From: an uncultured Gammaproteobacteria bacterium | GTDB taxonomy: Bacteria; Pseudomonadota; Gammaproteobacteria; JBBQDK01 | Direction of reading: 5' to 3' | Assembly: GCA_963778665.1 (NCBI GenBank) | Contig: CAVZVG010000003.1 | Span: 128,813-192,812, forward strand | Length of the DNA stretch: 64,000 bases | Part shown: piece after piece, positions 31,401 to 53,374 of the stretch | Layout of the letters: each line of letters opens with the position of its first letter | Position numbering within the stretch: position 1 is the first letter of the stretch | Position numbers and translations under genes: made by a program | Notes under the pieces: generated by a model | What the model saw: the letters and a program-made list of their open reading frames with translations, nothing else | The model's database searches: none | What the model was told of the DNA's origin: nothing

Positions 31401-31510
31401 CACCGATGGCCTTCGCCATCATGGGTGGATTGTTCATCGCCACCGTACAGACACTGCTGTTCGTACCGGCCTTGTATGCGGCGTGGTATCGGGCGAAGCG
31501 GCCGGGGTGA
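28427..31510 (+). CDS. RND efflux permease (AcrB/HAE1-like, 12 TM)
   Basis: 1027 aa. Typical RND topology with two large periplasmic loops. Confidence 0.9.
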   Translation: MSAGDKEPGNGFTDRFNLSALALRHRQLTLFFFLLIAIGGTLAYFQLGQREDPDFTIRYMVIRTLWPGASAVQVDREVTDRLERKLEETPYFYITTSYSKRGESLIILQVKESAPPKAVADAWYQVRKHIGDIRNTLPPEVIGPFFNDEFGDVFGSIYAFTADGFTQSELRDYVETVRQRLITLPNVAKIELVGVRPDKVYIEVSDKKLAQLGIGIPDIAAALQGQNAMQSAGTLTTSVFSVPVQVTGQYTSIAAIAATPLRANGRTLKIGDIARVYRGYTDPPEQIMRYRGKEAIGLAVSMVKDGDVLKLGEDLKRSMQAIKAELPLGVEFAQVSDQPQVVKQSVSEFMTALGEAVAIVLLVSFVALRLRAGLVVAVTIPFVLAATFLLMLYFKIDLHRISTGALIIALGLLVDDAMIAIEMMARKLEEGYDRFAAATFAFKSTSMPMLTGTLITVAGFLPIATAKSATGEYTFAIFAVVAIALLSSWVAAVTITPFLGYSFLKEHKGVDSSRDVYDTRFYQGFRALVDRCIEHRKLVIGVTLAAFLLGGFGMSLTEKQFFPSSNRIELMVELWLPEGSSLAATETQVKRLEGILEKDPDIATYVSYVGNGSPRFFLSMDQKLYRTNFDQTIVLTKNLAARERVVQVLRKALASEFPGIRGRVERVPLGPPVNYPVQFRVTGPKIQPLKAIADQVAAVMRKDPHTLDVNVDWGERVPALHVQIDQDKARALGVTTQSVSQALQGVLSGLTVGQYRDNDRLIDIDVRGVPSERHDLSALGEINVPTASGQYVPLAQIGKVEQVFEEPIIWRRSRELTVTARCDIVDGVQAPDVSMAINPHLDAIRAKLPPGYRIDVGGAWEENSKAQVSINSGYPLMIALTLTLLMLQLQKFSLTFMVALTAPLGIVGVALALLLFHQPFGFVALLGTIALSGMIMRNSVILIDQIQQDIKAGHPLWIAIRESAVRRLRPILLTAAAAILAMIPLTQSVLWAPMAFAIMGGLFIATVQTLLFVPALYAAWYRAKRPG

Positions 31511-31871
31511 TATGAGTGCTGTAGATCGGGAGACTTTTGTAAAGAGAAAAATATTTTCTCTATTAAGAGAGCGCTCGCAATCGGCGTGATCGGCTTGACA
31601 TTACCGGGTTCCGGAATTTAAATGGGGCCAAGACGAGCGGTGTGGGAATGGAAGTAGATCGCTCTCAATAAAAATCAACAGGGAATACCATGGAGAGGAC
31701 ACAACTCAATCGCCTCCGTGTACCTCACGCTACCGGCTTTGCGCTGGCAACCGTCCCTGTTCGTTCCAATCAGCCTTCCAAGGCTACGCGCGCAGTGAAT
31801 TTACGTGGTGAATCGGTTGGTATTCTGGGCGCGATATATATTGCGATACGGCATCAGGCTCGTGGCTTTCG

Positions 31872-32414
31872 GTGGCGTTTATAGCGCAAAAGATATTTGT
31901 TTTGTGTCTGCGACACATTACTACAATCTTGTGTGAGTTTTCCGTCCTAATTGTAGTGCTCGTAGTATGCTGTCAGCCCTTGGCAAAGGCATCCGTCAGT
32001 TTGCCACCCATTCTAACCCCTACGTATCTGTACAATACTTCATGGGATAGCGGCGTTCCCCTTCGCACGTACTCATCGTTTGATGAGATGAGTCAACGAA
32101 TTATACAGTCTCTCTTAAATTCTGACCCGATCCTCTTCGCGGGAAGCTATTGGATTCAAGGGTCGAATCTCTTGATCCGCAGCCCTAACTACGGGAGCGG
32201 AGCAACGTTTGATTGGCCCGGGTATTATGCCTGTAGTGATCCGTATGGAACCGTTACTGGAGTGCCGGTAGATTATACAAATCAAGACACTCCTTACCTT
32301 TGTGCCTCATGCGCTCCCGGGGCCTTTTTATATGGACCTGATACGAACTATCAGTGCATGGGTTACTACATCGAATCTCAACGTTTCAATCCAATTAATA
32401 ATGGAGGAAACTAA
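31872..32414 (+). CDS. hypothetical protein encoded in low-GC (~45%) DNA immediately upstream of Rhs
   Basis: 180-aa ORF in AT-richer DNA, where long random ORFs are unlikely. Hydrophobic N-terminal segment; 6 Cys in the C-terminal half. No family recognised. Confidence 0.3.
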   Translation: MAFIAQKIFVLCLRHITTILCEFSVLIVVLVVCCQPLAKASVSLPPILTPTYLYNTSWDSGVPLRTYSSFDEMSQRIIQSLLNSDPILFAGSYWIQGSNLLIRSPNYGSGATFDWPGYYACSDPYGTVTGVPVDYTNQDTPYLCASCAPGAFLYGPDTNYQCMGYYIESQRFNPINNGGN

Positions 32415-35400
32415 ATATTGTCCGGCAATTGTTGGAGACCCCATCAGTCTCACAACTGGCAACAAGTTCCAAGTAGAGGACGTAGTGATCGGCAACACTC
32501 CGAGTGGTCTCTCATTCGCTAGCTACTATAACAGCCAAGCAGAAACTGCAGGCTCTCTGGGTGTTAACTGGCAACATACCTACGGCAGCGTGCTGCAATT
32601 TGACAGTGCGTCGTCAGGCCCTCCCCCACAGAATCCGTACATTCCGCAGCGGAGCAATATCTACTCCTCACCTCAGGGTGCCTGCGATCAGGCTGGAATG
32701 ATATCAAAGGCAACATTGCAGAGCCGTGGGTCAGCACCGCTGTTACTCTATACACAAATAATCGCTGTGAGATATACAGCAACGGCAGGTTGGTGTTGCT
32801 CTTGCCTATTTATTATCTGGGCGGTACGATTTTTTCTGGGGGCGGACTTATTTCGTCAACACTTCCAACACATACCGTCACAGTCATTCGCCCTGATGGC
32901 AAACAGATCCAATTCAGCAAGATCAGCGGTGTCTGGCAGAACCAGTCCTATATTGCCGAGCACTTGACCGAGACTGACGATAGCAATGGCAATACCACCG
33001 GCTACACCTACACAACTGCCGATGACAACACCGAAAATTACGACGCTACCGGCAGGCTCCAGTCCATCACCGACATCGCGGTAACACGCAGAACACTCAG
33101 TTACGATCGCCAGGGCGTCTTTCCACCGTCATACCAATACTGCCGAGTCGCTGACGTTCAGTTACGATATCAGCAACCGCATCAGCACGATAACCGATCA
33201 AGGCGGCCGGTCTGGCTGTACGGCTACGACGCCAACAACAATCTCGCCTCGGTCACCTATCCGGACGCTACGATCGCCGACAACACCGACAATCCGGAGC
33301 GCGTCTATCTCTACGAGAACACCAGCTTCCCACACGCACTGACTAGCATCACCGATTGCGCGCACGTATCGAGCTGCAGCACCTCCGCCGTGAACCACTA
33401 CGCCAACTTCGAGTACGACGCGCAACGGCCGCGCCACCGCGAGCTATCTCGGTCCAGCAGACATCGGTGACTGACCGACCGCATCGAAGGCGTCTCCATC
33501 GTCTACAACAGCGACTTCATGCGCACCGTCACCAACAGTCGAGGCAAGGTCAGCACCTACAGCACCACCACGCAACTCGGCGTGGCGCTGGTCACCGGTA
33601 TCACCGGTCCGGGGTGTTCCTCGTGCGGCGGCAAGCAATGCAAGCACCAGTATGACGGCAGCAACAACCTCACCAGCAAAACCGATAACAACGGCCACGT
33701 CACCCATTACGGCAACTACGATGCCAACGGCAACCCGGGCTGCGTGGTCGAAGGCATGACGACGGCGGATGCCAGCACCGGCGTGTGCAGCTTCGATCCC
33801 GCCGCCTCGCCCGATGCACGCCGCATCGATTACACCTACGACCCACGCTTCCACAGCAAGGTCGCGACGATCAGCGAACCGTCGGTGTACGCAGGGCACA
33901 ACAAGCTCACCACCAACAGCTACGACGACTACGGCAACCTGACCCAGGTCACGATCAGCGGCTATACACCCGACGGCACTCCCGTCACGCGCACCACGGG
34001 CGGCACCTACGCCGGTCCCTTGCATCAGCTCTCACTGATCGACGGCCCGCGCACCGATGTGCAGGATCTCACGACACTGGCCTATTACCCCGACGATCCG
34101 ACGCAAGGCAGCAACCGCGCCCGCCTGCTGAGCGTCACCGACGCCATGGGTATCGCGTTGCGGTCCAACATCCAGTACTCCGCCACCGGCAAGGTGCTGT
34201 CCGAGTCGCGTCCCAACGGTGTCTCTCTGACCTACACCTATTACCCCGGCAACGACCGCCTGCACACATTGACCGAGACCGGCGGCGGCACCAGCCGCGT
34301 GCTGAGCTGGACCTATCTGCCGACCGGCGAGGTGCAGTCCATCACCACCGCGAGCGGCACCGCCGCCGCCACGACCTTGACCCTCGGTTATGACGCCGGC
34401 CGTCGCCTCACCCGCATCACCGACGGCCTCGGCAATTACATCGAGTACACGCTCGACACCGAAGACAACCGTATCGGCGAGAACACCTACGACAGCAACG
34501 GCGCCCTCAAGAAAGCCATCACCCAGACCTTCGACGACTACAACCATCTGAGCAGCCGCAGTCAGGCCAATGAGACCCTCACCACCCACGTCGCGCCGGA
34601 CGGCACCCTCAGCAACACGGTCGATGGCAACAGCAGCACGACAAGTTATGGCTACGACGCCCTGAAGCGCCTGATCAGCACCACCCAGGACCTGGGCGGC
34701 AGTGATCCCACCACCCAGAACGCACTGACCCAGTACGCCTATGACAGTCACGACGACCTCATCCGGGTCATCGATCCCGACAACCATGCCACCAACTATA
34801 GCTACGACGATCTTGGCGACCTGATCAGCACCACCAGTCCGGACACCGGCACCACCACCAATACCTATGACGCCGCCGGCAACCTCAAGACCCGCAGCGA
34901 TGCCAACGGCAGTTCGTTCAGCTACAGCTACGACGCCGACAACCGCCTCACGCTCGTCGACGCCCCCGGCAGCAACGATGACATCACCTACACCTACGAC
35001 ACCTGCACCGACGGCGCCGGCCGGTTGTGCAAGGTCAGCACGCCCGGCAACAGCGTGTTCTACACCTACACCGCCTTCGGCGAGATCGCCGGCAGCGAGG
35101 GGCTGTATTACAGCTACGATGCCGCCGGCCGGGTGCAGACCATGACCTATCCTTCCGGCGCCGTGGTGACCTACGGCTACGATGCCGCCGGTGGGATCAC
35201 CAGCGTGCAGCTCAACCGCAACGGCACGATCACCAACCTCGCCAGCGGCATCGTGCACGCGCCGTTCGGTCCGGTGACGGCGCTGAGCTACGGCAATGGC
35301 AAGACGCTGACGCAGACACTCGACAGCGCCTATCGGCTGCAAGCACAGACCGTCCCCGCCGCCCTCGATCTGAGTTATCCGCAGTACGATGCCAACGGCA

Positions 35401-37094
35401 ACCTCATGCAGCGCGGCGACAGCTTCGCCACGCCCGCGACCAGCGGCTTTGGCTACGACGCCCTGAACCGCCTCAACACCGCCACCGGTCCGTTCGGCAG
35501 CCGCAGCTACAGCGACGACAAGAACGGCAACCGCACCCAGCTCGCCGATGGCACGACGACCGACTACAGCTACGAGTCCGGCAGCAACCGCTTGCATACG
35601 ATCGGCACGGCCGACGTGCTGAACGACGCCAACGGCAACATGCTCGGCAACGGTGTCTGGAGCTATGCCTACAACACCCACAACCGAATGACGCAGGCCA
35701 AGCAGAGCGGTACGGTGATCGGCAGCTATAGCTACAACGGCCTGGGCCAGCGCGTCGTCAAGACGCTCGCCAACGGCAAGGGCCGGGTGTTCCTGTACGG
35801 CACCCACGGCGAACTGCTGGCCGAGGCCGATCAGGGCGGCACCGTCCTCAGCGAATACATCTACCTCGACGGCACGCTGCTCGCGATCAACCAGCCCGAC
35901 GACAACAATAACGGCCAGACCAATGCCCAGGAAGATGTCGCCGGCACCAACCCGGTCAGTGCCGACTATGACGTCGACGGCCTCAGCAACCTCACCGAGT
36001 GGTTCGTGACCGGCACCAATGCGCGCCAACACCGATACCGACGGCGACGGCATCAGCGACAGCGTGGAAGATCGCCAAAGGCACCGACCCGCTGAACGGC
36101 AGCGCCTATCCCGGCGACGGCGACCTCAACCAGGACGGCCAGATCAACGCCGGCGATCTGGTACTGGAATCGCAGATCGCCCTCGGCACCCGCACCCCGA
36201 CCGCCACGCAACTCACCCACGGCGACATGAACCAGGACGGCGATCATCGACGTGCGCGATATGCTGAAGCTGGAAAGAAAGATACTGGGGCTGGCGTTCA
36301 ACAGCCTCACCACGCTGCCCGGGTATCAGACGCTGGTCGCCAGCCTCGATCGGGCCAAAGACACACTCCACAGCACGGCACACCAACTCCTCGCGAGCCT
36401 GATCAGCGAGGCCGATGCCGCGACACCGGGCGGGAAGATCTTTTATGTGCACACTGATCAGGTCGGGACACCGCAGGTGCTGACCGACGAGACCGGTGCC
36501 GTCGTCTGGCGGGCGAGTTATGATCCGTACGGGATGGCGACGGTGACACTGGCGACGGGCAATCCCATTCCGGAGATGGATATCAGGATGCCGGGGCAGT
36601 ACTTCGATCAGGAGACTGGGCTGCATTACAACTACTATCGGGATTATGATCCGAAGAGCGGTAGATACCCGGAAGTAGACGCCATTGGTTTAGCAGGTGG
36701 GACGAATCCCTACGTGTACGGGTATAACAACCCACTGAGATATACAGACCCGTCAGGACTGAAACCCATTCCATGTCCCCCAGGGTCTCCTGAGGGCGCC
36801 ACATGCGATGATGGAACAGATAATCAGAATTCCCCGCCTGTCTGTGTAACTGCTGAATGTGCAGCAAACATATTACCTAACCCTCCTTCTGATGCTTGCG
36901 ACATTGAGTGCGGGTTTGCCTCTGATGCGTGGTCATCTAGGCAAATGGTTTGCACTCCAATCGGCGGTGTAGCGCGACTCTTTGGAGCACCAGGATGGGC
37001 TGTCTCAACTGGGTGCAAAATTATTGCATCGCACGAATGTAAGAAAAAGTGCGAGAAACGCAAGGAGAAGAGTGTCCCATGTACAAAAAAATAG
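32401..37094 (+). pseudogene. Rhs/YD-repeat polymorphic toxin, frameshifted in at least 5 places
   Basis: N-terminal Rhs motif CPAIVGDPISLTTGNKF...GVNWQHTYG. About 50 YD repeats. Core end IFYVHTDQVGTPQVLTDETGAVVWRASYDPYG...DPSGL at 36747-36761, then a 110-aa Cys-rich tip. Frame changes near 32800-32960, 33470-33520, 36030, 36065 and 36245. Confidence 0.7.
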
Positions 37095-37414
37095 CACTAT
37101 CAACAATTATCTTGTATCAACGATTTATATCCCCCTACAAGGGTTACTGTTGCGCGCATCGTATCGCGTATGGCGGACCGTCATGCTCGCAATATGCCGC
37201 AATAGTTATATCTGAATCTGGAGTTCTATCTTCAATTCTGAAGATTAAGTTTCGTTTGCATAAATGCAGAGCTGCCTATGCTCAATTGCTAACAGACCAT
37301 ACAAATGGCATCGGCAGTAACGGTGGTGAGACTGATGACAACCAAGCGAATGGGAAGTGTGGGCCATGTGCGAAAGACACCGCAGGGAATATATGCACAA
37401 TGCCTTGTCTGTGA
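37079..37414 (+). CDS. YidD/DUF37-like protein (membrane protein insertion efficiency factor homologue) with Cys-rich tail, in the Rhs immunity position
   Basis: ILYQRFISPYKGYCCAHRIAYGGPSCSQYA...KFRLHKC matches the YidD pattern YQRLISP...CRF.PTCS.Y...KC. Overlaps the Rhs stop by 16 nt. Low GC, like the Rhs tip. Confidence 0.55.
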   Translation: MYKKIALSTIILYQRFISPYKGYCCAHRIAYGGPSCSQYAAIVISESGVLSSILKIKFRLHKCRAAYAQLLTDHTNGIGSNGGETDDNQANGKCGPCAKDTAGNICTMPCL

Positions 37415-37481
37415 CTGCCAAAGGTGACGACTGCCAAAGGTGACAACCAAAGGTGACCAACCAAAGACTGCCAAAGGTGAC
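37413..37481. repeat. degenerate tandem array of a 16-bp unit GACTGCCAAAGGTGAC (about 4 copies)
   Basis: Two perfect units at 37413-37444, then degenerate units running into the left REP of the RAYT. Confidence 0.6.
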
Positions 37482-37483
37482 AG

Positions 37484-38283
37484 ACGAACCAAAAGGGACA
37501 GATTTATTTGAGTCCACCATGCGGCAAGCTTGAGTGGTCAAAAATCACGGAGAGGAAGACATGCCAAGGAATGGCAGAGTTGTGTTGCAAAACTACCCCC
37601 ATCACATCGTGCAACGTGGCCATAACCGGCAAGTTGTGTTTGCCGGGGAAGATGACTTCAGGTACTACCTCGACACGTTAATAAAGTGGAAAACAGAGTA
37701 TGGCGTCAAGGTCTATGGTTATTGCCTGATGACTAATCATGTTCACTTGGTGCTGGAACCGCCCGACGAGATCGCAGTGCTGGGCCGGTTGATGAAACGA
37801 CTGGCAGGGCGGCAGACCCGCTATGTGAATCGTCTGGAAGGTCGGCGCGGGACTCTTTGGGAGAGTAGATATAAATCGAGCCCAATCCAGACCGATGAGT
37901 ATTTGTTGGCATGCTGTCGTTATGTGGATCTCAATCCGGTACGAGCGCGCATGGTGGTTTCACCACAAGATTATCATTGGTCAAGCTACAGGATGAAGGT
38001 GGGATTGGACGCATCATCTTGGATAGACGAAGATCCTTGTTATTTGTCGCTTGGTCTCGTAGCCGCAACAGCGGTATGAACGTTACCAAGACTTTGTGTA
38101 TTCAGCGATAGCGGAGGGTGAATGGGAGTTGATACGACAGGCCGTTCATCGTTGCCAATTGACAGGAAACAAATACTTTATCGATGAAGTAAACGTATCA
38201 CAGGTCGGCGAATAGAGCACCGCAACCCTGGCAATCAACCGCTGGAGAAGCGCGCCAAATAAATCTGTCCCCTTTGGTTCGTC
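37484..38283 (+). mobile_element. REP-associated tyrosine transposase (RAYT, IS200/IS605-like HuH) flanked by 28-bp inverted REPs; transposase frameshifted
   Basis: Inverted repeats GACGAACCAAAAGGGACAGATTTATTTG (37484-37510) and CAAATAAATCTGTCCCCTTTGGTTCGTC (38256-38283), 1 mismatch. CDS 37561-38215 has HuH motif MTNHVHLVL and Tyr motif RYVDLNPVRARMV..WSSY. A C-terminal frame change near 38070 continues into ...EGEWELIRQAVHRCQLTGNKYFIDE. Confidence 0.65.
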
Positions 38284-38794
38284 TTGCTTGATGCAGCGAA
38301 ATTTGCCGCCGTCAATTATGCCGCATCGAGGAGCAGCATGTGAAAATGGATATTGAGATTCAGCGCACTGCAGAAGCGCTGGATGAGGGTGATCCATCGT
38401 CTGTGCATCGAACGATATTACTCGTTAGCGATCTCTAATATTCTGCTGCATGGCGCCTTAGGATTGACAAGCGCACGGCACCAGTGTTAGCGTCGCCTCC
38501 ACAAGAGATGTGCCGTCAGCGCATGTCCACAAGCAATGACTTGAATAATTCATACGCAGGGCTGCATCAATGTCTCACGGATCGATGACATTCTTCTTCT
38601 GAATCTTGCCGGATCGAGCGTGTACAGCTGTGTCGTCCGGTGATAGCGACTGTTCATAAAAGTTGTAGCGCAAGCGCTGCCCCGCAAGCTGTGCAGCGCG
38701 ATGCGTCAGCGTCGTCCGTAGGATGGACCGGCGCGCAGGGATTTCCGCACCGACGGTTTCAAAAATTACCAACTCGGCCTAAAGGGAGTTCGTC

Positions 38795-41700
38795 ATGACG
38801 CACAATCCTCGCAACCTTCTAAGCGGCATCGTCATCCGTTTTCTGCTGTTGGTTTCATTCTTCGCTCTCGCGCCGTCGACCGGGTCTGCCGCTCCAGACA
38901 AGCCGCAAGTGAAAAATGCGCAGGCCTTGATACATCGGATTGCCCCGACAAAACCCGGGCACACACTACTGACGGACGCGGTCTACCACGACCAGATCGT
39001 GGTCAAATTCCGGGAAGGGACCCGTATCCGTCTGCGCAACAAAGTGCTGAAGGCATTGAACGGAAAGAACCTGGCACAACTTCACGATATGCTCGACAAA
39101 CACGGCAGGCCGCGCGTCAGTCGCTTGTTCAGCCGTTCCGAGGCGGGTCTTGACGACGATAAGACACGTGGCGAGGCTCGTACCCATCAGCAGCTCGCGG
39201 ACCTCAATCTGTACTACATGGTCCAGCCGCCCAGTGGTGCGAGTGAACAGGATGTCGAGTCCTTGATCGACGATCTCAACGCCATGGATATCGTCGAGAT
39301 CGCCTATCCGGAACCCAAGGCCGAACCGGCCGCCGCCGACATCCCACCCACGACACCCGACTTCGAAGCGGATCAGGGTCACCTGAATTCAGCACCACAG
39401 GGTGTGGACGCACACTATGGTTGGACCCTGCCCGGCGGCCAGGGTCTGGGTACCCGGTTCATCGATGTCGAATACGGCTGGCGTTCTACCCACGAAGATC
39501 TGAAGGCGCCCTTCTTCGCAGCGGGCAATTTCAGCAGCGGCACCTTAAGCGGCAACTCGTCCAACGACAACCACGGCACAGCGGTACTGGGAGAGATTCT
39601 CGGCGACGCCAACGGTTTCGGTATCACCGGCATCGCGCCGCAGGCCGAATATGGTGTCTCCTCCGCCACGCAGGGCGTCGCCCAGGCCATCAACACGGCC
39701 GCGGCGCAGCTGTCGCCCGGCGACGTCATCCTGATCGAGTTGCACATGAAGGGTCCCGCGTCGGGGCAGACCTGCACCTGCAACTGCGGTCAGTTCGAGT
39801 TCGTGCCGATGGAATACACTCAGGCCGACTTCGATGCGATCAAGGCGGCCACGGCCAATGGCATCGTCGTCGTCGAAGCCGGCGGCAACGGTTCGATGGA
39901 CCTCGATTCAGCGATCTACAAGGGAATGTTCGACCGCAACGTACGCGACTCGGGTGCGATTCTGGTCGGCGCGGGCAATAGTACGAATCATGGCCCCACC
40001 TGCTGGACCAACTACGGCACGCGTATCGACGTCCAGGGCTGGGGCAATAACGTCTATACGACAGGCTACGGCAATCTTTTCAAAGGAGACACCTCCGCAC
40101 CGGATCCGAATCAGTACTACACGGCGACCTTCTCTGGGACCTCCAGCGCCTCGCCGATCATCGTCGGCAGCGTGCTGGCGATGGAGGGATATCGCAAGCA
40201 GAACTACGGCACCGTCATTGCGCCCGAGCAGATGCGTCTGCTGCTGTCCATGCTGGGAACGCCCCAGGCTTCCTCACCCAAGCACATCGGCCCTCTTCCG
40301 GATATCCATGCGATGGCCGACCGTATGGGCGTGGATTCCGATCTCGACGGGCTCACCGATCAGCAGGAAGTCCAGTTCGGAACCGACATCCACCAGGTGG
40401 ATACTGACCACGACGGTGTATCCGATTACCGGGAAGTCTGTTACGACGGAGATTGCTCGACCTACAATCCCGCACCTGGCGGCGGAGACATGAATGCACT
40501 CGATCCGGATACCGATCACGACGGACTGACCGACGGGGACGAACTGCTGTTGTACGGCAGCAGCCCCGTGGCGATCGACGGCGATGGAGACGGTCTGTCG
40601 GATTTTGATGAAGTTCATGTCTATGGGACCAACCCGGGCAAGAGCGACAGCGACGGCGACGGCCTGAACGATCAAGAGGAGATTGTCCAATACCACACCG
40701 ATCCGCTGAATGCCGATAGCGACGGCGACTTGTTGAACGACTACGACGAAGTCATCACCTACCATACCGACCCTAACAACCCCGACAGCGACGGCGACGG
40801 ATTCACCGATGGCCAGGAAGTCCAGGCCGGCATGGATCCGCTGCAGTACGACGGGGAAGCCCATCCGTGGCTGGGCACGGTGACTGGCCGCGTGACGACG
40901 CCGGACGGTCGGGGGCTGGCAGGGGTGACGTTCTGGGATGTCACGAAGTATCCGCAGACGGTGACCACCGATGCGAACGGTTACTTCGTGCAGCGTGGTT
41001 ACACCAGCGGTCAAACGGTGTACTTCAACACTTTCGGAGTGCCGGGTTACACGCTGACGCCTTCCGGTTGGAGCGGTGCGCCGTTCGCCCACTCCGGCGG
41101 CGCGGAGGTGGCACGCAACTTCATCGCCACGCAGAACACCGGCACGGTGTCGGGACGGGTGACGAAGGACGACGGCAGCGCCCTGGCGGGGGCGACGTTC
41201 TGGGATGTCGTGAAATACCCGCTGACCTTCACCACGGCGGCGGACGGCTCGTTCATCCAGACGGGGTATCAGGCAGGACAGACCGCCTACTTCAACTACT
41301 TCGTGGTGTCCGGCTATTCGCTGACGCCTTCCGGCTGGAGCGGTGCGCCGTTCATCCACGACGGCAGCGCAATGACGGGCAAGGACTTCGTGGCCACGCA
41401 GAAGACGGGCACCGTGTCCGGGCGCATCACCTCGCCTGACGGCAAAGGCATCTCCGGACTGACCTTCTGGGACGTCCAGCGTTACCCGCAGACGGTGACC
41501 ACGGCGTCCGACGGCTCGTTCATCCTCACGGGCTACAACGCAGGCGACAACGTATTGTTCAACACCAACGGTATATCGGGCTACATGGTTACGCCTTCAG
41601 GCTGGAATGGCCAGTCCTTCACCCACGACGGCAGCGCCATCAAGCATCGTGACTATGTGGCGGTGCCCAACGGCAGTACAACCTGGTTGGGCACGGTAAC

Positions 41701-42490
41701 TGGCCGCGTGACGACGCCGGACGGTCGGGGGCTGGCAGGGGTGACGTTCTGGGATGTCACGAAGTATCCGCAGACGGTGACCACCGATGCGAACGGCTAC
41801 TTCGTGCAGAGTGGTTACACCAGCGGTCAAACGGTGTACTTCAACACTTTCGTGGTGCCGGGTTACACGCTGACGCCTTCCGGCTGGAGCGGTGCGCCGT
41901 TCACCTACTCAGGCAGCGCGGAGGTGGCACGCAACTTCATCGCCACGCAGAACACCGGCACGGTGTCGGGACGGGTGACGAAGGACGACGGCAGCGCCCT
42001 GGCGGGGGCGACGTTCTGGGATGTCGTGAAATACCCGCTGACCTTCACCACGGCGGCGGACGGCTCGTTCATCCAGACGGGGTATCAGGCAGGACAGACC
42101 GCCTACTTCAACTACTTCGTGGTGTCCGGCTATTCGCTGACGCCTTCCGGCTGGAGCGGTGCGCCGTTCATCCACGACGGCAGTGCAATGACGGGCAAGG
42201 ACTTCGTGGCCACGCAGAAGACGGGCACCGTGTCCGGGCGCATCACCTCGCCGGACGGCAAAGGCATCTCCGGTATCACGTTGTGGGACGTGACCAAATA
42301 CCCCCAAACGGTCACGACGGCATCGGATGGCTCCTTCACCATCACCGGTTATCAGGGTGGGGAGAATGTGCTGTTGAACACCAACGGAGCCACGGACTAT
42401 GACATCACACCTTCGGGATGGGATGGCCAGACCTTCGTTCACGACGGCAGTGCGATCACCAAACGCGACTTCATAGCCGTGCACAAGTAG
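38795..42490 (+). CDS. secreted S8 (subtilisin-like) peptidase with TSP3-type Ca-binding repeats and six carboxypeptidase-regulatory-like domains
   Basis: Signal peptide. Catalytic triad contexts D (FIDVEYGW), H (NHGTAVLGE), N (VVEAGGNG) and S (FSGTSSASP). DxDxDG repeats (DTDHDGLTDGDE, DSDGDGLND). Six ~90-aa repeats of the form GTVTGRVTTPDGRGLAGVTF.... Confidence 0.8.
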   Translation: MTHNPRNLLSGIVIRFLLLVSFFALAPSTGSAAPDKPQVKNAQALIHRIAPTKPGHTLLTDAVYHDQIVVKFREGTRIRLRNKVLKALNGKNLAQLHDMLDKHGRPRVSRLFSRSEAGLDDDKTRGEARTHQQLADLNLYYMVQPPSGASEQDVESLIDDLNAMDIVEIAYPEPKAEPAAADIPPTTPDFEADQGHLNSAPQGVDAHYGWTLPGGQGLGTRFIDVEYGWRSTHEDLKAPFFAAGNFSSGTLSGNSSNDNHGTAVLGEILGDANGFGITGIAPQAEYGVSSATQGVAQAINTAAAQLSPGDVILIELHMKGPASGQTCTCNCGQFEFVPMEYTQADFDAIKAATANGIVVVEAGGNGSMDLDSAIYKGMFDRNVRDSGAILVGAGNSTNHGPTCWTNYGTRIDVQGWGNNVYTTGYGNLFKGDTSAPDPNQYYTATFSGTSSASPIIVGSVLAMEGYRKQNYGTVIAPEQMRLLLSMLGTPQASSPKHIGPLPDIHAMADRMGVDSDLDGLTDQQEVQFGTDIHQVDTDHDGVSDYREVCYDGDCSTYNPAPGGGDMNALDPDTDHDGLTDGDELLLYGSSPVAIDGDGDGLSDFDEVHVYGTNPGKSDSDGDGLNDQEEIVQYHTDPLNADSDGDLLNDYDEVITYHTDPNNPDSDGDGFTDGQEVQAGMDPLQYDGEAHPWLGTVTGRVTTPDGRGLAGVTFWDVTKYPQTVTTDANGYFVQRGYTSGQTVYFNTFGVPGYTLTPSGWSGAPFAHSGGAEVARNFIATQNTGTVSGRVTKDDGSALAGATFWDVVKYPLTFTTAADGSFIQTGYQAGQTAYFNYFVVSGYSLTPSGWSGAPFIHDGSAMTGKDFVATQKTGTVSGRITSPDGKGISGLTFWDVQRYPQTVTTASDGSFILTGYNAGDNVLFNTNGISGYMVTPSGWNGQSFTHDGSAIKHRDYVAVPNGSTTWLGTVTGRVTTPDGRGLAGVTFWDVTKYPQTVTTDANGYFVQSGYTSGQTVYFNTFVVPGYTLTPSGWSGAPFTYSGSAEVARNFIATQNTGTVSGRVTKDDGSALAGATFWDVVKYPLTFTTAADGSFIQTGYQAGQTAYFNYFVVSGYSLTPSGWSGAPFIHDGSAMTGKDFVATQKTGTVSGRITSPDGKGISGITLWDVTKYPQTVTTASDGSFTITGYQGGENVLLNTNGATDYDITPSGWDGQTFVHDGSAITKRDFIAVHK
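40868..42487 (+). repeat. 816-bp near-identical direct tandem duplication inside the S8 peptidase gene (2 units, each 272 codons = 3 domain repeats)
   Basis: Unit 1 40868-41683; unit 2 41684-42487. Only a handful of substitutions, e.g. QRGYTSG versus QSGYTSG. Confidence 0.75.
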
Positions 42491-42550
42491 CACAGGACGG
42501 ACGCCCGGCGCATGCAACACGCGCCGGGTAGCTCCGCTCGCCGTCATGAG

Positions 42551-42606
42551 AAAAAGGGGGTCGGTGACAAATCGCAATCGTTCCCATTTGTCACCGACCC
42601 CTTTTC
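42551..42606. terminator. bidirectional rho-independent terminator
   Basis: AAAAAGGGGGTCGGTGACAAAT..loop..ATTTGTCACCGACCCCTTTT. A perfect 21-bp stem flanked by an A-tract and a T-tract between convergent genes. Confidence 0.65.
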
Positions 42607-42752
42607 GAACCAACCGTACCGGAGACCGGTAATCGAGAGCTCGGTAGGGTGGGCAACGTGTTGCCCACGCGTGACCTGTCGTTCTCTGCGACGCTTTCAT
42701 GTCGATCTGCCGCGCTTTCACGTCACGCGTGGGCACGAACTACGTGCCCACC

Positions 42753-44529
42753 CTACATTGTTCTGCCTTTGTTGGTCGGCAGTGTCATCGGTATCGGTTG
42801 CTTGATGATTTTCCCAGGCCCCAGCAGGCACGGCGTCTGATCGTACTTGAGTGTCTTGAGTTGTTTTTCCACCAGCTTGTTCAGTTCATGGAAGCTGGGA
42901 TTTTCTCCCTTTGCCCGGTGCGTGTGCAGGACGGTGGCGAGGCTGTAGGTGTAGGCGCCGTAGGATGTCACGCCGTGCCGGTACTCGTAGGAGAGTTGGT
43001 TTTCCTGGCAGGCTTCCATGATGACGGGCAGATAGGGGCCGTGATGGCCGTAGTCCTTGCGGCGCCGGTCGTATTGCTTTGTTGCCAGCGAGCGCAGTTC
43101 GACGCCGCGGCCGAAACGGTTGGTGGCGCCTTTGCTGCCGACATACGCCGTGCCTTCCTTGGAGTCGGCGAGTCCCTTGTTGGCGGTGGTGAGCGGGCGG
43201 TCTTGCCACATCTGCAGTTCCACATTCCAGCGCATGGCGCGATGACGGATGTCGTCGGGCGGGCTGATGCCGCGCACGCGACGGGCGCCGTCGCGACTCA
43301 TGCCGCCCGAATGACAGCAATCGAAGATGGCGACCAGCAGGCTGTCATAGGGAAGCTGCGAATAGAACTCCACGAACTGCTTGTCGATGATCGCGTGCTC
43401 CGGTGACCAGTCGAAATCGTAAGGCACCAGGCACTCGTCGATGTGATCGACCTCGTCCTGCGAACCGTAGGCGGGGATCTGCGCGCCGTGACCGGAGTAG
43501 AACAGCACGCGTTCGTCGCCGGCCTTGGTGCCGTCGAGCAGCCAGTGCAGCCGGTCCATGATGCCTTTTGCGGTGGCGCGGTCGTCGAGCACGACGCGGA
43601 TCTCTTCCGGTTCGAAGGTGCTTTCCTGGAGCAGCTGGCTCATGAGAAAGACATCGTTGACGCAGCCGTCCAGGCGGTTCGCGGGGTCGGGGTAATCGTT
43701 GATGCCGATCAGCAGCGCGCGGCGCGTCGGCTTGGCGCTGGCGCTGCCGAAGGCCTTGATGCCGCGACTCACGGCCTTGCCGAGGCTGGTGCCGGACGCC
43801 TGTCGCCAGACGGTGTTCTCGGCGTTGACATGCGCGAGGTAATGAGCGGCGTCGTGGTTGATGATGTCGTTCGGGATGTCGAACTCGGTGATCACCTGCG
43901 AGAAATTGTCGGCGGCGATGTTGAGCTGCGCGGTCATGACATGATCGTCGGGGTTGAACAGGTGATACCACTTGCGCGCCGCCAGCGGCTCGATCCGTCC
44001 GGCGAACACATCGCGCACGAACGGATTGCCGATCTGGGAACCGAAGCTGACGAAATACTTGCCCTCGATCGCAGCGGCGTTCTGCCGGAAGGTATCGTAG
44101 CTGATCAGCGAGCCCAGACTGTGGGCGCAGACCATGTCGTAGGAACCGGCGCCGACCTTGTCGAGCAGCGCCTTGCGGGTCCTGGCGCGCAGTTTGTCGT
44201 CGGCGGTCCATTGCGCGACCATGCCGGCGGTCCACTTGACCTGCTCGGGGAAATCGAAGAAGCCGCGCGAGCGCGTGAAGAGATCGCCGACGCCGTGCAC
44301 GATGCCGCTCATCAGCAGTTTCGCGACGGCTGCCGAGTAGGTGGCGAGATTGCTCTCGGCATCCTGGAAATAATCGTCGTAATGCAGGAAGTCGAGTTGG
44401 AGTTGCGTGTCGGGAGACCATCTGCCGATGGCCGCGGTGATGGCCCGGGTCCAGGAGGGCACCAGTTGGGGGTCCGCCTCGCCGTGGCCGACACCGTGGA
44501 CACAGAGGATATTCATTGTCTTCGCCATA
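42753..44529 (-). CDS. fusion protein: N-terminal alpha/beta-hydrolase (lipase-like, GHSLG) plus C-terminal caspase-like C14 peptidase (metacaspase/CHAT-type)
   Basis: N-terminal oxyanion HG (MNILCVHGVGHG) and nucleophile elbow CAHSLGS. C14 His (VLFYSGHGAQ) and Cys (IFDCCHSGGMS) dyad. AGGGA Shine-Dalgarno before the MAKTM start. Confidence 0.7.
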
Positions 44530-44960
44530 TCAGGTTCCCTCATCTTGGCTGTGGTGGTGAAGCGGCGCGAATGTCCGCTTCTTGGTCGGGATGCGTCGAG
44601 TCGGCGGGTACTTGCCGTGCGGCATCCATGGCTTGGTGCTGTGTTGTTCAGTGCGGAGTGTCGGCAGGACTATTGTTCGGCGTGTGTCGGGCATGCGTCA
44701 AGCGTTGCCGGGTGGCATGCATCGGTGGGCGGCGCAAACCCGGGTTTCACTGCGTTCAACCCAGGCTACTCGATTCCTTTCCGCCAGCAAAACCGCGTTG
44801 CCGGCGGCAGGTTATTGCCGTGCGGGCTGTGCTGTCGAATCGGTGATGCCATCCGAGACAACGGCTTACGGACTGGCTTCACCCTATGCACAAGTCGGAA
44901 CGAATCTTGCCTGAGACCAGGTAACGACTGCTTATATCAGGTGCGACCCGAGGTGCTGCA

Positions 44961-45788
44961 ATGCGAATCCAACTGCCTACCATGAACAAGTCCAGCCTCA
45001 TCGGGCTGCTCGCCGGTGCCGGATTGGTGCTCGGCATGATGCTGCTGGTGCCGGCACACATCGGCGTGTTCTTCAATATCCCCGGGCTGCTGGTGGTGTT
45101 CGGCGGCACCCTGGCGGCGACCGTGGTGAGCCGGCCGATCGCCGATGTCAAACGCGTATTGCGCAGTCTGCCGGAGCTGGTCGAGGATAAGGATGATGCG
45201 GTCTCGGCCGAGGTCGAGATCGAGCAGTTGCTGCGGGTGGCCGAGTGGTATCGGCGCGGCAATCTTTACAACGCCGAACTGGAGCTGGAAAGGATCCAGA
45301 ATTCTTATTTGCACGGCGGCATCCGCATGGTGTTCGACGCGGCGCCTCTGCCGGATCTGATCAAGGTACTGCAATGGCGCAGCGCCGGCGTGCGCATGCG
45401 CGAGCATGCCGACTCGCAGATCCTGCGTACCATGGCCGCGCTGGCGCCGGCCTTCGGCATGCTGGGGACCTTGTTCGGTCTGGTGCAGATGCTGTCCGGC
45501 CTGGGTCACAGCGGCCTGCAGGAGATCGGTGCGACCATGGCCTTCGCCATGTCGGCGACGCTGTACGGCATACTCTCCGCGAATCTGGTGCTGAAACCGC
45601 TCGCCATCAAGATGGAGCGGCGCACGCAACGCCGTCTGGTGCTGATGAACATGCTGCAGGAAGGCATCCTGCTGTTGTATGAACGGCGTCATCCGATGCT
45701 GATCCGCGAAACCCTCGAGGCCTATCTGGCGCACCAGGCGGAAGCGTCCTATTCGATGCTCCCGCTGACCCTTGTGAAGGCCGCCTGA
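44961..45788 (+). CDS. MotA/TolQ/ExbB-family proton-channel protein (stator A-like)
   Basis: 275 aa, 4 TM. Conserved LAPAFGMLGTLFGLVQM and ATLYGILSANLVLKPL segments. Confidence 0.7.
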   Translation: MRIQLPTMNKSSLIGLLAGAGLVLGMMLLVPAHIGVFFNIPGLLVVFGGTLAATVVSRPIADVKRVLRSLPELVEDKDDAVSAEVEIEQLLRVAEWYRRGNLYNAELELERIQNSYLHGGIRMVFDAAPLPDLIKVLQWRSAGVRMREHADSQILRTMAALAPAFGMLGTLFGLVQMLSGLGHSGLQEIGATMAFAMSATLYGILSANLVLKPLAIKMERRTQRRLVLMNMLQEGILLLYERRHPMLIRETLEAYLAHQAEASYSMLPLTLVKAA

Positions 45789-45789
45789 C

Positions 45790-46860
45790 ATGGCCGCCGT
45801 GCTGCGGCCATCATTCGCGTTGGCGACATCCGACGGGGTCAGGCATTCGTCGCGCGCGCCGCGCCAGACCAATGATTTCATCGACCGGCGCGCCCTCGTC
45901 GACGTCATGGCCGTCATGGAGAACGTGCATCCGCAAAGCAGCGACGATGAAATCTGGATGATCAGCTATATGGACATCATGACGCTGCTGCTGACGCTGT
46001 TCGTGCTGTTGCTGGCCTTTGCCAGGATCACGCCGCAGGCGCCGCATGTCGCGCCGATGGCCCAGGTGACGGAGCACAAGGTGGTCAAGAGCAAGCCGGC
46101 GCAGGCTGCAGTGCACACCGACACGCCGATCATCGAGGCAGTGCCGGTCAGATCGGCAGCGATCCTTTCCCCTGTCGTTGTCGTACCGACAGCGCCTGCC
46201 GCAAAGCTGACGCCGGCAGTGAAGCCGACGGAAAGAACCAACAACACATCTCCGGTATCCGCGCCGCTGAGCATGGCTGCACTGGGTATTTTCTCATCGG
46301 TGGATGCGCTAAGGCCGCCGTTGAAGGCGGCGCCGCGGAATGTCGTGCCGCTGCGCCAGGAAGTTCCTGCCACGGTTCCCACCGTACCGGCTGCGGTCGC
46401 GGCGCGCGAGAAACTGCTCGAGTCGGTGCGGACCAGCGCCCTGGGTCAGCATATCGAACTGACCTCCGACCAGGAGAATGTCAATCTCGAAATCAGCGAC
46501 AACATCCTGTTCGACCCCGGCAGTGCGACGCTGAAACAGCACGGCCTGCAACTGCTGGATGAGTTGGCGAGCTTGCTGAGCACGCAGGATTGCACGGTAT
46601 CCGTCGAAGGTCACAGCGACAATGTTCCGTTCGCCAATGCGCACTTCGCGTCGAACTGGGAATTGTCGGCCACCCGTGCCACCAACGTGACGCGTTATCT
46701 GATCGCCCATGGCATCGCCGCCGCACGCTTGCGTGCCATCGGCTACGCCGACACCCGTCCGCGCGCCGACAATGACACGGTGCAGGGCAGGGCGCGCAAT
46801 CGCCGTGTGTCGCTGGTATTGCACATGCCGGTAGCGCCGCAGGTTGCGGCTACTGAGTGA
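45790..46860 (+). CDS. MotB-like protein with C-terminal OmpA-family peptidoglycan-binding domain
   Basis: TM/plug WMISYMDIMTLLLTLFVLL. Pro/Ala-rich linker. OmpA-like domain (NRRVSLVL). ATG begins 2 nt after the motA-like stop; the start may be later, ~45907. Confidence 0.7.
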   Translation: MAAVLRPSFALATSDGVRHSSRAPRQTNDFIDRRALVDVMAVMENVHPQSSDDEIWMISYMDIMTLLLTLFVLLLAFARITPQAPHVAPMAQVTEHKVVKSKPAQAAVHTDTPIIEAVPVRSAAILSPVVVVPTAPAAKLTPAVKPTERTNNTSPVSAPLSMAALGIFSSVDALRPPLKAAPRNVVPLRQEVPATVPTVPAAVAAREKLLESVRTSALGQHIELTSDQENVNLEISDNILFDPGSATLKQHGLQLLDELASLLSTQDCTVSVEGHSDNVPFANAHFASNWELSATRATNVTRYLIAHGIAAARLRAIGYADTRPRADNDTVQGRARNRRVSLVLHMPVAPQVAATE

Positions 46861-50992: not shown

Positions 50993-52123
50993 TCACTGCA
51001 TCGGCAGTTGCATGAGCGACTGGTGGCTGTGCAGGAACCAGCGGTCGAGAACGACGTGGCGCGTGAACCAGGGCTTGCGTAGCAGCCGCGTGCCGAGGTA
51101 GTTGCGCGCGGCTGTCGCGACCGGCTGCGGCTTCGCGGTGCTCGCCGGGCCGAAACGCCTGGTAAGACTGTCCTGATAGGCGGCCAGTCGGGCGGTGCCG
51201 TAATCGCCTTCGGCGGCGAGTATCGTGGCGGCGGCCAGCAGCCCTGACTCGATCGCCGGACGGATGCCCTCACCGCTTTGCGCATAGGCCAGTCCGGCGG
51301 CATCGCCGATCAACAACACCCCATCGTCGATCTGCTTGCGTCTGCTGTGACCGTAGAGCAGATAGGCGTGACCGTGCAGCGTATCGGGACTGTCGGCGGG
51401 AATCCGGTCCGTTGTCTTGAGCCAGTCGAGGAAGGCGGCGCTGTGTTCGGCCAGTCGCTGCGGGTCTTCGCGGCCCAGTCCGATGTTCAGGTAATCGCCT
51501 TTGTGAAACACCCAGCCATAGCCTTTCAGGTCGGCGCAGAAATACAACTCGGGCCGATCCGGCGCCGCATTGCAGCGGCGCTGTTGCGCAGCGCTCATTT
51601 TGAACTCGATTTCCCGGGCCGTGACGGCCAGTTCGCGGCGGCCGACATCGGCGCCGAGATAACGCGCTACCGGGCAGAAGTGTCCGCCGGCACCGATCAG
51701 CAGTGCGGCCTCGATGCGCCGGTTGATCAGCCAGCCGTCGTCCCGGCGTTCTATCGACTGCAGCGTTTCGCCGAGGGCCAGGCGCGCGCCGCTGCGTTGC
51801 AGCAGATAATCGTCGAATTCGCAGCGGCGAATGCCGTAACTGACGATCCGCGCATAGTCGACGTCGTGCGGCACGGCGCCGATCAGACCGAGACGGAAGC
51901 CCGTGATCGGTTGCAGCACGCGATCGCGGGCGTACTCCGCGCGGTCGACCTGCAGTTCGTCCAGCACCGGCGGCGTGATCCAGCCGGCGCACACCTTGTC
52001 ACGCGGGAAGCGGCTCTTGTCGAGCACCAGCACATCCAGTCCCGCCTGACGCAATACCCGCGCGCAACTGGCACCCGCCGGACCGCCGCCGACGATCAGT
52101 ACATCGCAACGTTCCGTGCTCAT
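50993..52123 (-). CDS. geranylgeranyl-reductase-family FAD-dependent oxidoreductase
   Basis: N-terminal dinucleotide fold DVLIVGGGPAGAS. GGR-family motif LLIGDAAGLAYAQSGEGIRPAIESG. ATG overlaps the cfa stop (ATGA). Confidence 0.7.
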   Translation of the reverse strand: MSTERCDVLIVGGGPAGASCARVLRQAGLDVLVLDKSRFPRDKVCAGWITPPVLDELQVDRAEYARDRVLQPITGFRLGLIGAVPHDVDYARIVSYGIRRCEFDDYLLQRSGARLALGETLQSIERRDDGWLINRRIEAALLIGAGGHFCPVARYLGADVGRRELAVTAREIEFKMSAAQQRRCNAAPDRPELYFCADLKGYGWVFHKGDYLNIGLGREDPQRLAEHSAAFLDWLKTTDRIPADSPDTLHGHAYLLYGHSRRKQIDDGVLLIGDAAGLAYAQSGEGIRPAIESGLLAAATILAAEGDYGTARLAAYQDSLTRRFGPASTAKPQPVATAARNYLGTRLLRKPWFTRHVVLDRWFLHSHQSLMQLPMQ

Positions 52124-53374
52124 GGCTGCTCCCGATACAGATCGGCGCGTGTCCACGAAATCCTGTTGTTGCCGTGCCGGTTGAACAACACCTGGAACAA
52201 TTGCATCTGACCGCTGGTGAACGCCGCCTGCGAACCGGCCAGATACAGGCGCCAGACGCGCACGAAGGTGGTCATCGAACATCTCCTCGACACGCGCGGC
52301 GTTGGCGTCGAAGCGCGCCAGCCAATGTTGCAGCGTCTTGGCGTAATGCAGCCGCAGGTTTTCGACGTCGAGAACGGAGAATCCCAGCGGTTCGAACAGT
52401 TCCATCATTTCGCTGAGGCTGGGCGGATAGGCGCCCGGAAAGATGCGCCGCGTGATCCAGGAATTCATGGGACCCGGGCAGTCGCGGCCGATGCTGTGGA
52501 TCAGGCCGCGGCCGTCCTCGGTGAGTGCCGCGTCGATGACCTTGCCGAGCGTCGCATAGTTGTCCACGCCGACATGTTCCAGCATGCCCACCGAGACGAA
52601 GGCATCGAACTTGCCTTTGATGGCGCGGTAGTCGTCTTCGACGAATTCGATGCGCTCGTGCAGACGCTCGCGGCGCGCCCAGGCGCGGGCATAGGCAATC
52701 TGTTCCCGCGAGATGTTGTAGGACGTGACGCTGACGCCGTAATGTTTCGCCATGTGCATGGCCAAGGCGCCCCAGCCCGAGCCCGCCTCGACAACCCGCT
52801 CGCCCGGCCGCAGCCGAAGTTTGCGGCAGACGTGATCGAGCTTGGCGATCTGCGCCTCTTCCAGGCTCGCTTCGGGCGTGGGGAAATACGCGCAGGTATA
52901 GACCATGCGTTCATCGAGCCAGAGACGATAGAATTCATTGCCGAGATCGTAATGATGATGGATGTTGTCGCGCGCGCGGTCCGTGTTGTTGTTCGGGCGT
53001 CGCGACAGGGCATGCAGGACGCGCCGCCGCAGGCCGGCCGCCAGCAGATGACGATAGACGGTGTCGAGAAAGGCGGGCAGTTCGCCCTCGATTTCGATGC
53101 GTCCGGCGCTGTACAGTTCGCCGAACGCATACTCGGGATTGGCAACCAGCTTTTGCAGACTGCGCCGATCGTGTATGACCATGCGGGCGACCGATGCCGC
53201 ACCGGTCGGTGCAAACACCGCGCCGTCCCACAGCGCTATCGAGATGGGCGGCTGACCGACACCGTCCAGCAACCGCTTCACCAGCCATCGGTCGGGCAGG
53301 CGCGCTTTGCCTTGTGCGGCCATCCTGCTTGCCGTGACAGTGTCATTTGCAACGTGTAAGTCCTGTTTTTGCAT
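52120..53374 (-). CDS. cfa: cyclopropane-fatty-acyl-phospholipid synthase family SAM-dependent methyltransferase, with an apparent 1-nt frameshift near 52268
   Basis: SAM motif VVEAGSGWGALAMHMA. The C-terminus in the +1 frame reads FVRVWRLYLAGSQAAFTSGQMQLFQVLFNR, the canonical Cfa end. In the assembled frame it reads through into the downstream gene, giving the 793-aa track ORF. Confidence 0.7.

Follow-up and report, generated by a model that had tools for sequence, protein, structure and literature searches.

Gating of effectors by proteases has lately come to the fore as a dominant logic of bacterial immunity. The pairing of an α/β-hydrolase with a caspase-like peptidase was described among nucleoside triphosphate (NTP)-dependent conflict systems (Kaur et al. 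2020, PMC7159879), and one such pair, LcCaspase and LcHydrolase of Lysobacter capsici, is the subject of a preprint (Evans et al. 2025, PMC12642450). LcCaspase cuts LcHydrolase, which measures about 32.6 kDa as the sum of three fragments, after Arg73 and Arg117. Both sites, R73-G and R117-G, are conserved in 161 homologues and, at a distance of about 44 residues, flank an inhibitory fragment, and cleavage releases toxicity from a zymogen for which lipase-like matches were reported (PMC12642450). The hydrolase has so far been studied as a two-gene pair with a sensor-wired caspase. Here, we describe a gene that carries both enzymes in one polypeptide. It lies in a 64,000-nucleotide window, the whole stretch of DNA that we analyzed, from an uncultured Gammaproteobacteria bacterium (GenBank assembly GCA_963778665.1, contig CAVZVG010000003.1, positions 128,813 to 192,812). 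Judged by its sequence, the fusion is probably a self-contained, single-chain, sensor-less protease-gated toxin, a fused form of the caspase plus α/β-hydrolase module.

Other described protease-gated effectors include bacterial gasdermin-protease pairs, MBL nuclease-protease pairs, Pepco and EACC1 (PMC12642450). Domain combinations of bacterial orthocaspases and metacaspases have been surveyed with Pfam (Asplund-Samuelsson et al. 2012, PMC3501461), and that survey recorded rare combinations of C14 peptidases with lytic enzymes, such as Amidase_2 or a GDSL lipase in Chitinophaga pinensis.

The open reading frame (ORF) at our locus spans 42753..44543 on the minus strand and encodes 596 amino acids. 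Because all homologues begin at Met6 and an AGGGA Shine-Dalgarno-like motif stands just upstream of it, we place the true start at 44528. A first-pass annotation, made from the sequence alone, had drawn the gene as 42753-44529; its end at 42753 holds and its start was one base off. Residues are numbered here from the first Met of the ORF at 44543, which makes Met6 the family start. The same annotation had read the gene as a lipase-like α/β-hydrolase fused to a C14 caspase-like peptidase. This architecture was borne out by a Pfam Peptidase_C14 match (PF00656, residues 273-573, E 1.2e-29, 104 bits against a cut-off of 21.4) and by a modeled hydrolase fold, and all of the motifs that it quoted (the VHGVGHG-type HG, CAHSLGS, YSGHGAQ and DCCHSGG) are present at coordinates that we checked. 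The features of the protein are listed below, with residue conservation counted over 194 fused homologues from many phyla that are 48-100% identical to the window protein; low confidence refers to the predicted local distance difference test (pLDDT).

42753..44528, minus strand: hydrolase-caspase fusion gene, 591 amino acids plus stop, as placed by the ORF and the homologue starts
43794..44528, minus strand: N-terminal serine hydrolase domain, residues 6-250
44493..44498, minus strand: oxyanion-hole H16-G17 after strand 1 (VHGVGHG); H in 192/194, G in 193/194
44262..44267, minus strand: R93-G94, predicted caspase site (Arg-Gly) in the lid insert; R in 192/194, G in 180/194
44118..44120, minus strand: nucleophile Ser142 (CAHSLGS), between strand 137-141 and helix 143-154; 194/194
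43944..43946, minus strand: triad acid Asp200 (NPDDHV), after strand 191-196; 194/194
43854..43856, minus strand: triad base His230 (INHD), after strand 214-218; 194/194
43731..43793, minus strand: interdomain linker, residues 251-271; mean conservation 0.43 against 0.66-0.81 elsewhere, low pLDDT at 254-271
42789..43730, minus strand: metacaspase-like Peptidase_C14 domain, residues 272-585, comprising p20, a linker of about 85 residues and p10
43488..43490, minus strand: catalytic His352 (YSGHGAQ), aligned with the metacaspase catalytic His; 194/194
43314..43316, minus strand: catalytic Cys410 (DCCHSGG), aligned with AtMC4, AtMC9 and TbMCA2; 194/194
43269..43274, minus strand: R424-G425, Arg-Gly 14 residues past Cys410 and followed by invariant PPDDIRHR; both residues 194/194

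The N-terminal domain is a real, conserved and very divergent serine hydrolase. AlphaFold2 models it with α/β-hydrolase topology and a strand-Ser-helix nucleophile elbow (predicted template-modeling score, pTM, 0.80; core pLDDT about 90), in keeping with the fold first proposed. In this model, the catalytic residues follow the order Ser, Asp, His on canonical loops, with Asp200 after the next-but-one strand and His230 after the last. The domain appears to consist of a minimal hydrolase core and an insert of lid-like helices that spans about residues 56-132. On alignment, both the Ser-Asp-His triad that the annotation had proposed and the His-Cys dyad of the other half are invariant. Profile searches assigned Peptidase_C14 to the caspase half, as anticipated, but found no Pfam model for the N-domain even at E<=10, and none in NCBIfam or PADLOC. 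A sequence-profile search of the PDB gave a lipase at E 1.5 as its sole match. The domain is far from an orphan in sequence space, as its profile is matched by 899 clusters at 50% identity.

The kinship of this domain emerged from its stand-alone relatives. A tblastn search of plasmids returned two distant hits, one in Hymenobacter tibetensis and one in Bradyrhizobium sp. 187, both "hypothetical proteins" of 266-293 amino acids encoded directly after a gene for a "caspase family protein" of about 600 amino acids. Using hhalign, the N-domain profile matched these single sequences at 97.9% (E 4e-13, near full length) and 97%. With the Hymenobacter protein as query, at least 1,551 relatives about 286-293 amino acids long were retrieved, some of them annotated as alpha/beta hydrolase or lipase family protein. 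Against A4, the profile of the stand-alone family, the fused N-domain matched over its full length at 98.1% probability (E 7e-14, 237 columns). The catalytic residues of the two line up, including the Ser elbow: Asp200 aligns with an invariant Asp and His230 with the invariant His of an RHG motif, at an overall identity of about 23-29%. This homology to caspase-associated hydrolases upholds the link to cell-death and antiphage effector modules that had been suggested for the fusion. It also amends the lipase-like label: the domain is a serine hydrolase, but its sequence places it with a putative protease-activated zymogen superfamily and not with generic lipases.

The stand-alone hydrolase directly follows a gene for about 580-620 amino acids in four of five loci, and three of those upstream genes are identifiable caspases. 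At L093 and L095, the upstream gene overlaps the hydrolase gene by 4 nucleotides and encodes 581-615 amino acids, with a weak C14 match at L095 and no Pfam match at L093; at L094, it encodes 389 amino acids and has no Pfam match. The hydrolases themselves give sub-threshold matches to Abhydrolase_6, Hydrolase_4 and PGAP1 and have no PADLOC model. Their alignment contains exactly two conserved (K/R)-Gly sites, in columns 71-72 and 112-113, about 40 residues apart. Because size, gene order and the two Arg-Gly sites all agree, it is strongly suggested, by inference, that A4 and LcHydrolase are one family, and the stand-alone hydrolases also fit the 2020 pairing.

The caspase half is most similar in the PDB to the metacaspases AtMC4, AtMC9, TbMCA2 and Yca1 (E 1e-20 to 1e-14), and AtMC9 aligns over the full p20, linker and p10. 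C294, D297, S350 and D408 are each present in 194/194 homologues and align with C92, D95, S156 and D211 of TbMCA2, which we take to be the S1 pocket residues that specify Arg or Lys. By these comparisons, the domain is predicted to be a catalytically intact, Arg/Lys-specific enzyme of the metacaspase/orthocaspase type. At the putative Ca2+ site, D369 is Asp in 155 and Asn in 37 of the 194 homologues and D387 is invariant. Lys388 stands where TbMCA2 presumably has D190, one of the residues that we take to form its Ca2+ cluster (D173, D189, D190 and D220); the equivalent of D220 falls outside the alignment. The NCBIfam model NF047832 (EACC1-associated caspase) scores 42.9 bits, below its cut-off of 140, and aligns over its first 82 positions only. 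The caspase half and the domain arrangement are poorly modeled in a full-length AlphaFold2 prediction (pLDDT 62).

Two conserved Arg-Gly pairs stand out in the fused family. R93-G94 lies at the end of a low-pLDDT loop, residues 82-95, inside the lid insert; the exceptions at G94 carry Ala, Asp or Ser. It aligns with site 2 of the stand-alone hydrolases (E-(K/R)-G-P), just before a conserved P-x-x-x-W. In alignments with those hydrolases, the segment that bears site 1 is absent from the fused family, which therefore has one site in place of two. The other pair, R424-G425, falls within the low-pLDDT segment 410-488 that includes the p20-p10 linker. Type II metacaspases undergo autoprocessing at the corresponding linker position, and their linker is autoinhibitory. 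By this likeness, R424-G425 is a predicted autoprocessing or autoinhibitory site.

Several relatives (P0128, P0137, P0140, P0168, P0173 and P0176) share a helical N-terminal extension of about 100 residues. It matches no family in Pfam (three of the extensions scanned) or NCBIfam and no known adaptor domain. The extension joins the hydrolase through Arg-rich linkers with T-R-G motifs, which is consistent with Arg-Gly being the preferred site of the fused protease. Its role could be that of a prodomain that is cut away, or of an adaptor that links the protein to a remote sensor.

Set beside LcCaspase and LcHydrolase, the fusion has the same hydrolase superfamily, the obligatory coupling to a C14 protease and the Arg-Gly at site 2, and the implied logic is likewise that an Arg-specific caspase switches on a latent hydrolase. 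It differs in being one polypeptide with the hydrolase N-terminal, in having a single Arg-Gly site in the hydrolase, in the metacaspase-like clade of its C14 domain and in the lack of a fused or adjacent sensor (STAND, WD40 or vWA-MoxR). With the gasdermin, MBL nuclease, Pepco and EACC1 systems it would share a latent toxic effector licensed by site-specific proteolysis, which we propose here; in those systems, effector and protease are separate proteins, a sensor is usually joined to the protease and the effectors are pores or a DNase. The His/Cys dyad and acidic S1 pocket recall the eukaryotic metacaspases, both type II (AtMC4 and AtMC9) and type I (TbMCA2 and Yca1), and the long p20-p10 linker with a basic residue soon after the catalytic Cys recalls type II in particular. 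Unlike these, the fusion is bacterial, has an enzymatic domain where a prodomain would be and only partly conserves the Ca2+-site residues. It resembles the surveyed orthocaspases (PMC3501461) in joining a prokaryotic C14 peptidase to another enzymatic domain, but the one-off combinations in that survey contrast with a family that is large and uniform. Since the N-domain has no Pfam match, a Pfam-based survey would score this architecture as a bare caspase.

The fused family comprises more than 1,869 clusters at 90% identity, of which the top 120 are all full length and at least 59% identical. Its distribution is sparse and patchy: at least 202 of 185,579 species genomes (about 0.1%) carry the fusion, and they come from Alpha-, Beta-, Gamma- and Deltaproteobacteria, Nitrospirota, Planctomycetota, Verrucomicrobiota, Acidobacteriota and others, with Pseudomonas, Bradyrhizobium, Cupriavidus, Sulfuriferula and Geomonas among the cultured hosts. 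The median identity among homologues is 60%. Apparent stand-alone N-domain proteins of 250-350 amino acids proved to be mostly truncated or frameshifted fusions. No phage genome searched with the N-domain gave a match, and PADLOC v2 recognized the fusion protein solely by its generic "caspase" model, PDLC02987.

We examined genomic context at 79 loci anchored on the fusion ORF, with all flanking ORFs clustered. No universal neighbor and no recurring sensor-type gene was found across these loci, which extends the earlier remark that no sensor partner is obvious in the window. The neighbors are heterogeneous and mostly metabolic or regulatory and do not form defense islands, and a role in defense therefore remains an analogy. 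An ABC ATPase (cluster 0) among the flanking genes was dismissed as a chance association on account of its mixed orientations and distances. Context changes even between close relatives. L011, at 87% identity, keeps the MotA-like neighbor of the window gene while its other flank joins the sequence at about 31.5 kb of the window, and L012, at 88%, shares the fusion gene only. Patchy spread together with such change fits an accessory gene.

What does recur, in about 20% of loci, is a second, sensor-less protease, on either side of the fusion and at gaps from -4 to about 320 nucleotides, most below 100. Tight same-strand neighbors are Peptidase_C11 at 7/79 loci, small Peptidase_C14 at 7/79 and papain-like Peptidase_C70 at 3/79. 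The loci with each kind of neighbor are as follows.

C11 neighbor: L024, L025, L028, L035, L037, L038, L045, L008 and L009
Small C14 neighbor: L003, L027, L034, L036, L039, L041, L043 and L082
C70 neighbor: L014, L016 and L018
Trypsin-like neighbor: L006/L007

A C11-hydrolase-C14 triple fusion, P0196, confirms a functional link between the second protease and the fusion, and the recurrence of such proteases hints at a cascade. In nearly all proteins that contain it, the N-domain comes together with a cysteine protease, mostly C14; besides the triple fusion, there is a hydrolase-CHAP protein (P0270). Larger relatives add further enzymes. Six of seven tested relatives of about 1,100 amino acids (P0157, P0201, P0209, P0243, P0246 and P0252) carry an N-terminal PLC-type phosphoesterase (PF04185, phospholipase C/acid-phosphatase type), P0153 has a C-terminal phospholipase D (PLD)-like domain (PLDc_2), and P0257 and P0156 have FAD-binding, FAD-linked oxidase-like domains. 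The fusions of the hydrolase-caspase core with phospholipase-like domains suggest multi-warhead toxins that target membranes.

We propose that the fusion works as follows. The protein would be cytoplasmic, with its N-terminal hydrolase held as an inactive zymogen by the lid insert. The C-terminal Arg/Lys-specific caspase would become active, probably through its own processing or release at R424-G425, and would then cut the hydrolase at R93-G94, most likely in trans within an oligomer. Rearrangement of the cut lid would unleash the Ser142-Asp200-His230 esterase or lipase, and the released hydrolase would kill or arrest the cell. Cleavage at the Arg-Gly sites, activation of the hydrolase and toxicity of the product are thus predictions of the model, whereas the fusion itself, its intact catalytic sites, the homology of the N-domain and the conservation and position of the Arg-Gly pairs are observed. 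By analogy with the described systems, the protein may act in abortive defense or in stress-induced cell death. The phospholipase C- and D-like fusions and the lipase-like matches of LcHydrolase suggest a lipid as the target. Candidate triggers are self-activation on induction, Ca2+ or envelope damage, and an adjacent or foreign protease, the last being the main rival reading.

Several observations weigh against this proposal. The equation of A4 with LcHydrolase draws on three features, namely size, gene order and the two Arg-Gly sites. The fused caspase and the partner caspases of the two-gene systems belong to different C14 clades and show no BLAST similarity, so the pairing may have arisen separately. 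With one zymogen site and the site-1 segment missing, gating may differ or be absent. Identities of 47-60% across phyla seem unusually high for a fast-evolving immune gene, and the homologous loci show no sensor, no defense-island neighbors and no phage or PADLOC system context. Finally, Foldseek matches the N-domain model to solved hydrolases only weakly (TM 0.3-0.45); the more plausible hits are FSH1, a YdeN-like hydrolase, B. subtilis LipA, cutinase and a type VI secretion system (T6SS) lipase.

The high identity across phyla (median 60%), the mostly metabolic or regulatory neighbors, the lack of a sensor and of phage or plasmid enrichment, and the synteny of the locus within Pseudomonas and Bradyrhizobium would also suit a bifunctional housekeeping or stress enzyme that neither gates a zymogen nor kills the cell. 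Its two halves would either work separately or share a substrate. One example would be quality control of proteins or lipids, a role put forward for some metacaspases and orthocaspases. We consider this unlikely. A housekeeping gene would hardly be confined to about 0.1% of species genomes in a patchy pattern or change context between copies that are 87-88% identical, and the N-domain is homologous to a characterized toxic zymogen family, keeps a conserved Arg-Gly in a disordered lid loop and is repeatedly fused with destructive enzymes (PLC-like, PLD-like, C11 and CHAP). An improbable alternative of similar standing makes the fusion the executioner of a protease cascade, in which an external protease acts as sensor or initiator by making the first Arg-Gly cut. 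Where a C11, small C14, C70 or trypsin-like gene adjoins the fusion, its product could be the initiator; elsewhere, as in the window, a protease of a phage or of the host could play this part. Cleavage after Arg or Lys is also typical of C11 and trypsin-like enzymes, a preference that these neighbors would share with the fused caspase. The tight same-strand C11, C14 and C70 genes, the trypsin-like genes of L006/L007 and the P0196 triple fusion all speak for such a cascade, and proteolytic cascades have a precedent in bacterial defense in the work of Steens et al. (2024), as cited in PMC12642450. However, about 80% of loci, the window included, have no adjacent second protease, the accessory proteases lack recognizable sensor domains and the fused caspase is invariantly catalytic.

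In a further reading, to which we assign a rather low probability, the metacaspase-like domain itself senses danger, such as Ca2+ influx or envelope damage, processes itself at R424-G425, cuts R93-G94 and licenses a membrane-lipid hydrolase. This likens the fusion to plant type II metacaspases, which respond directly to a danger signal. If true, a single bacterial protein would mirror the damage-activated metacaspase response of eukaryotes and would hint at how caspase-effector pairs first arose as, or collapsed into, one gene. It is very unlikely that the fusion is an exported or contact-dependent toxin of the RHS or T6SS type, whose caspase processes or releases a lipase warhead. RHS-repeat genes do lie about 6 kb away in the window, relatives are fused to phospholipase-like domains, and Foldseek matched the T6SS lipase effector 9cys (E 0.015). 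Against this, the N-terminus runs directly into hydrolase strand 1 and so leaves no signal peptide, no conserved neighbor resembles an immunity gene, no T6SS genes recur near homologues, and the RHS block is strain-specific, being absent from the 87%-identical L011. We retain the single-chain, self-contained protease-gated toxin as the preferred reading.

The caspase-hydrolase pairing (2020) and the zymogen mechanism (the 2025 preprint) were already known; a fused, sensor-less form with a single lid site and a caspase of the metacaspase-like clade was not found in the literature that we examined. A sensor-less chain of about 590 amino acids is the simplest system for asking how a bacterial caspase switches on. 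The family also lets one ask whether a single lid cut activates the hydrolase and what the hydrolase destroys, and the phospholipase C- and D-like fusions offer a concrete lead toward a membrane lipid. Since Pfam-based surveys label these proteins simply "caspase family protein", existing counts of bacterial caspase architectures and protease-effector modules fall short.

The flanks of the gene in the window are set by two features.

42553..42605: bidirectional intrinsic-terminator hairpin, common to the fusion gene and the convergent subtilisin-like gene
44529..44960: divergent intergenic region of 432 bp between the fusion gene start and the MotA-like gene

The hairpin lies between the two convergent stop codons and has a perfect 20-bp stem with an A-run 5' and a U-run 3'. 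Its folding energy is -32 kcal/mol (z -5.7), which no shuffled sequence equaled, and it is a credible bidirectional terminator. The first-pass description of the gene as monocistronic between such a terminator and an intergenic region of about 430 bp is thus accurate. The sole sigma-70-like match in the 432-bp region is weak and lies at 44701-44672 on the minus strand, and an Rfam scan of the flanks of the fusion gene matched no family. Between the terminator and the fusion stop codon are two palindromes (GTGGGCA...TGCCCAC; 42649-42668 and 42729-42751) that resemble repetitive extragenic palindromes (REPs). None would be expected by chance and the window holds no further copies; an IS200/RAYT-type Y1 transposase gene lies 5 kb away. 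Divergent from the fusion, at 44961-46860 on the plus strand, is a pair of MotA/ExbB-type and MotB/OmpA-type genes, the latter encoding a long Ala/Pro/Val-rich linker. The pair adjoins the fusion in L011 as well and in none of the other loci.

At its 3' side, the fusion borders a block of about 11 kb (about 31500-42700) that looks strain-specific and is absent from the syntenic L011. GC content falls to 0.48-0.49 in patches of the block at 32-33 kb and 37-38 kb, and the block contains RHS-repeat genes (33519..36095 and 36252..37094) and an IS200-like Y1 transposase gene (37534..38079). Over the RHS-repeat gene, at 33000-36000, strand skew is strong (GC skew to -0.25, AT skew +0.26), unlike the rest of the window. 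The convergent neighbor, at 38795-42490 on the plus strand, encodes a protein of 1,231 amino acids that has a hydrophobic, signal-like segment at its N-terminus and contains a divergent subtilisin-like domain (PDB subtilisins, E ~1e-5), bacterial TSP3 repeats and CarboxypepD_reg-like modules. It includes about five tandem 267-bp repeats at 40874-42241 and, at the protein level, two longer near-identical stretches. Both this gene and the RHS genes were set aside as partners of the fusion, as they fall within the insertion that L011 lacks. Farther away, at 50993-53374 on the minus strand, a 793-codon ORF combines a cyclopropane-fatty-acid-synthase-like methyltransferase (131-370) with a FAD/NAD-binding Rossmann segment (about 422-484), and may be either a genuine gene fusion or two genes that the ORF caller ran together.

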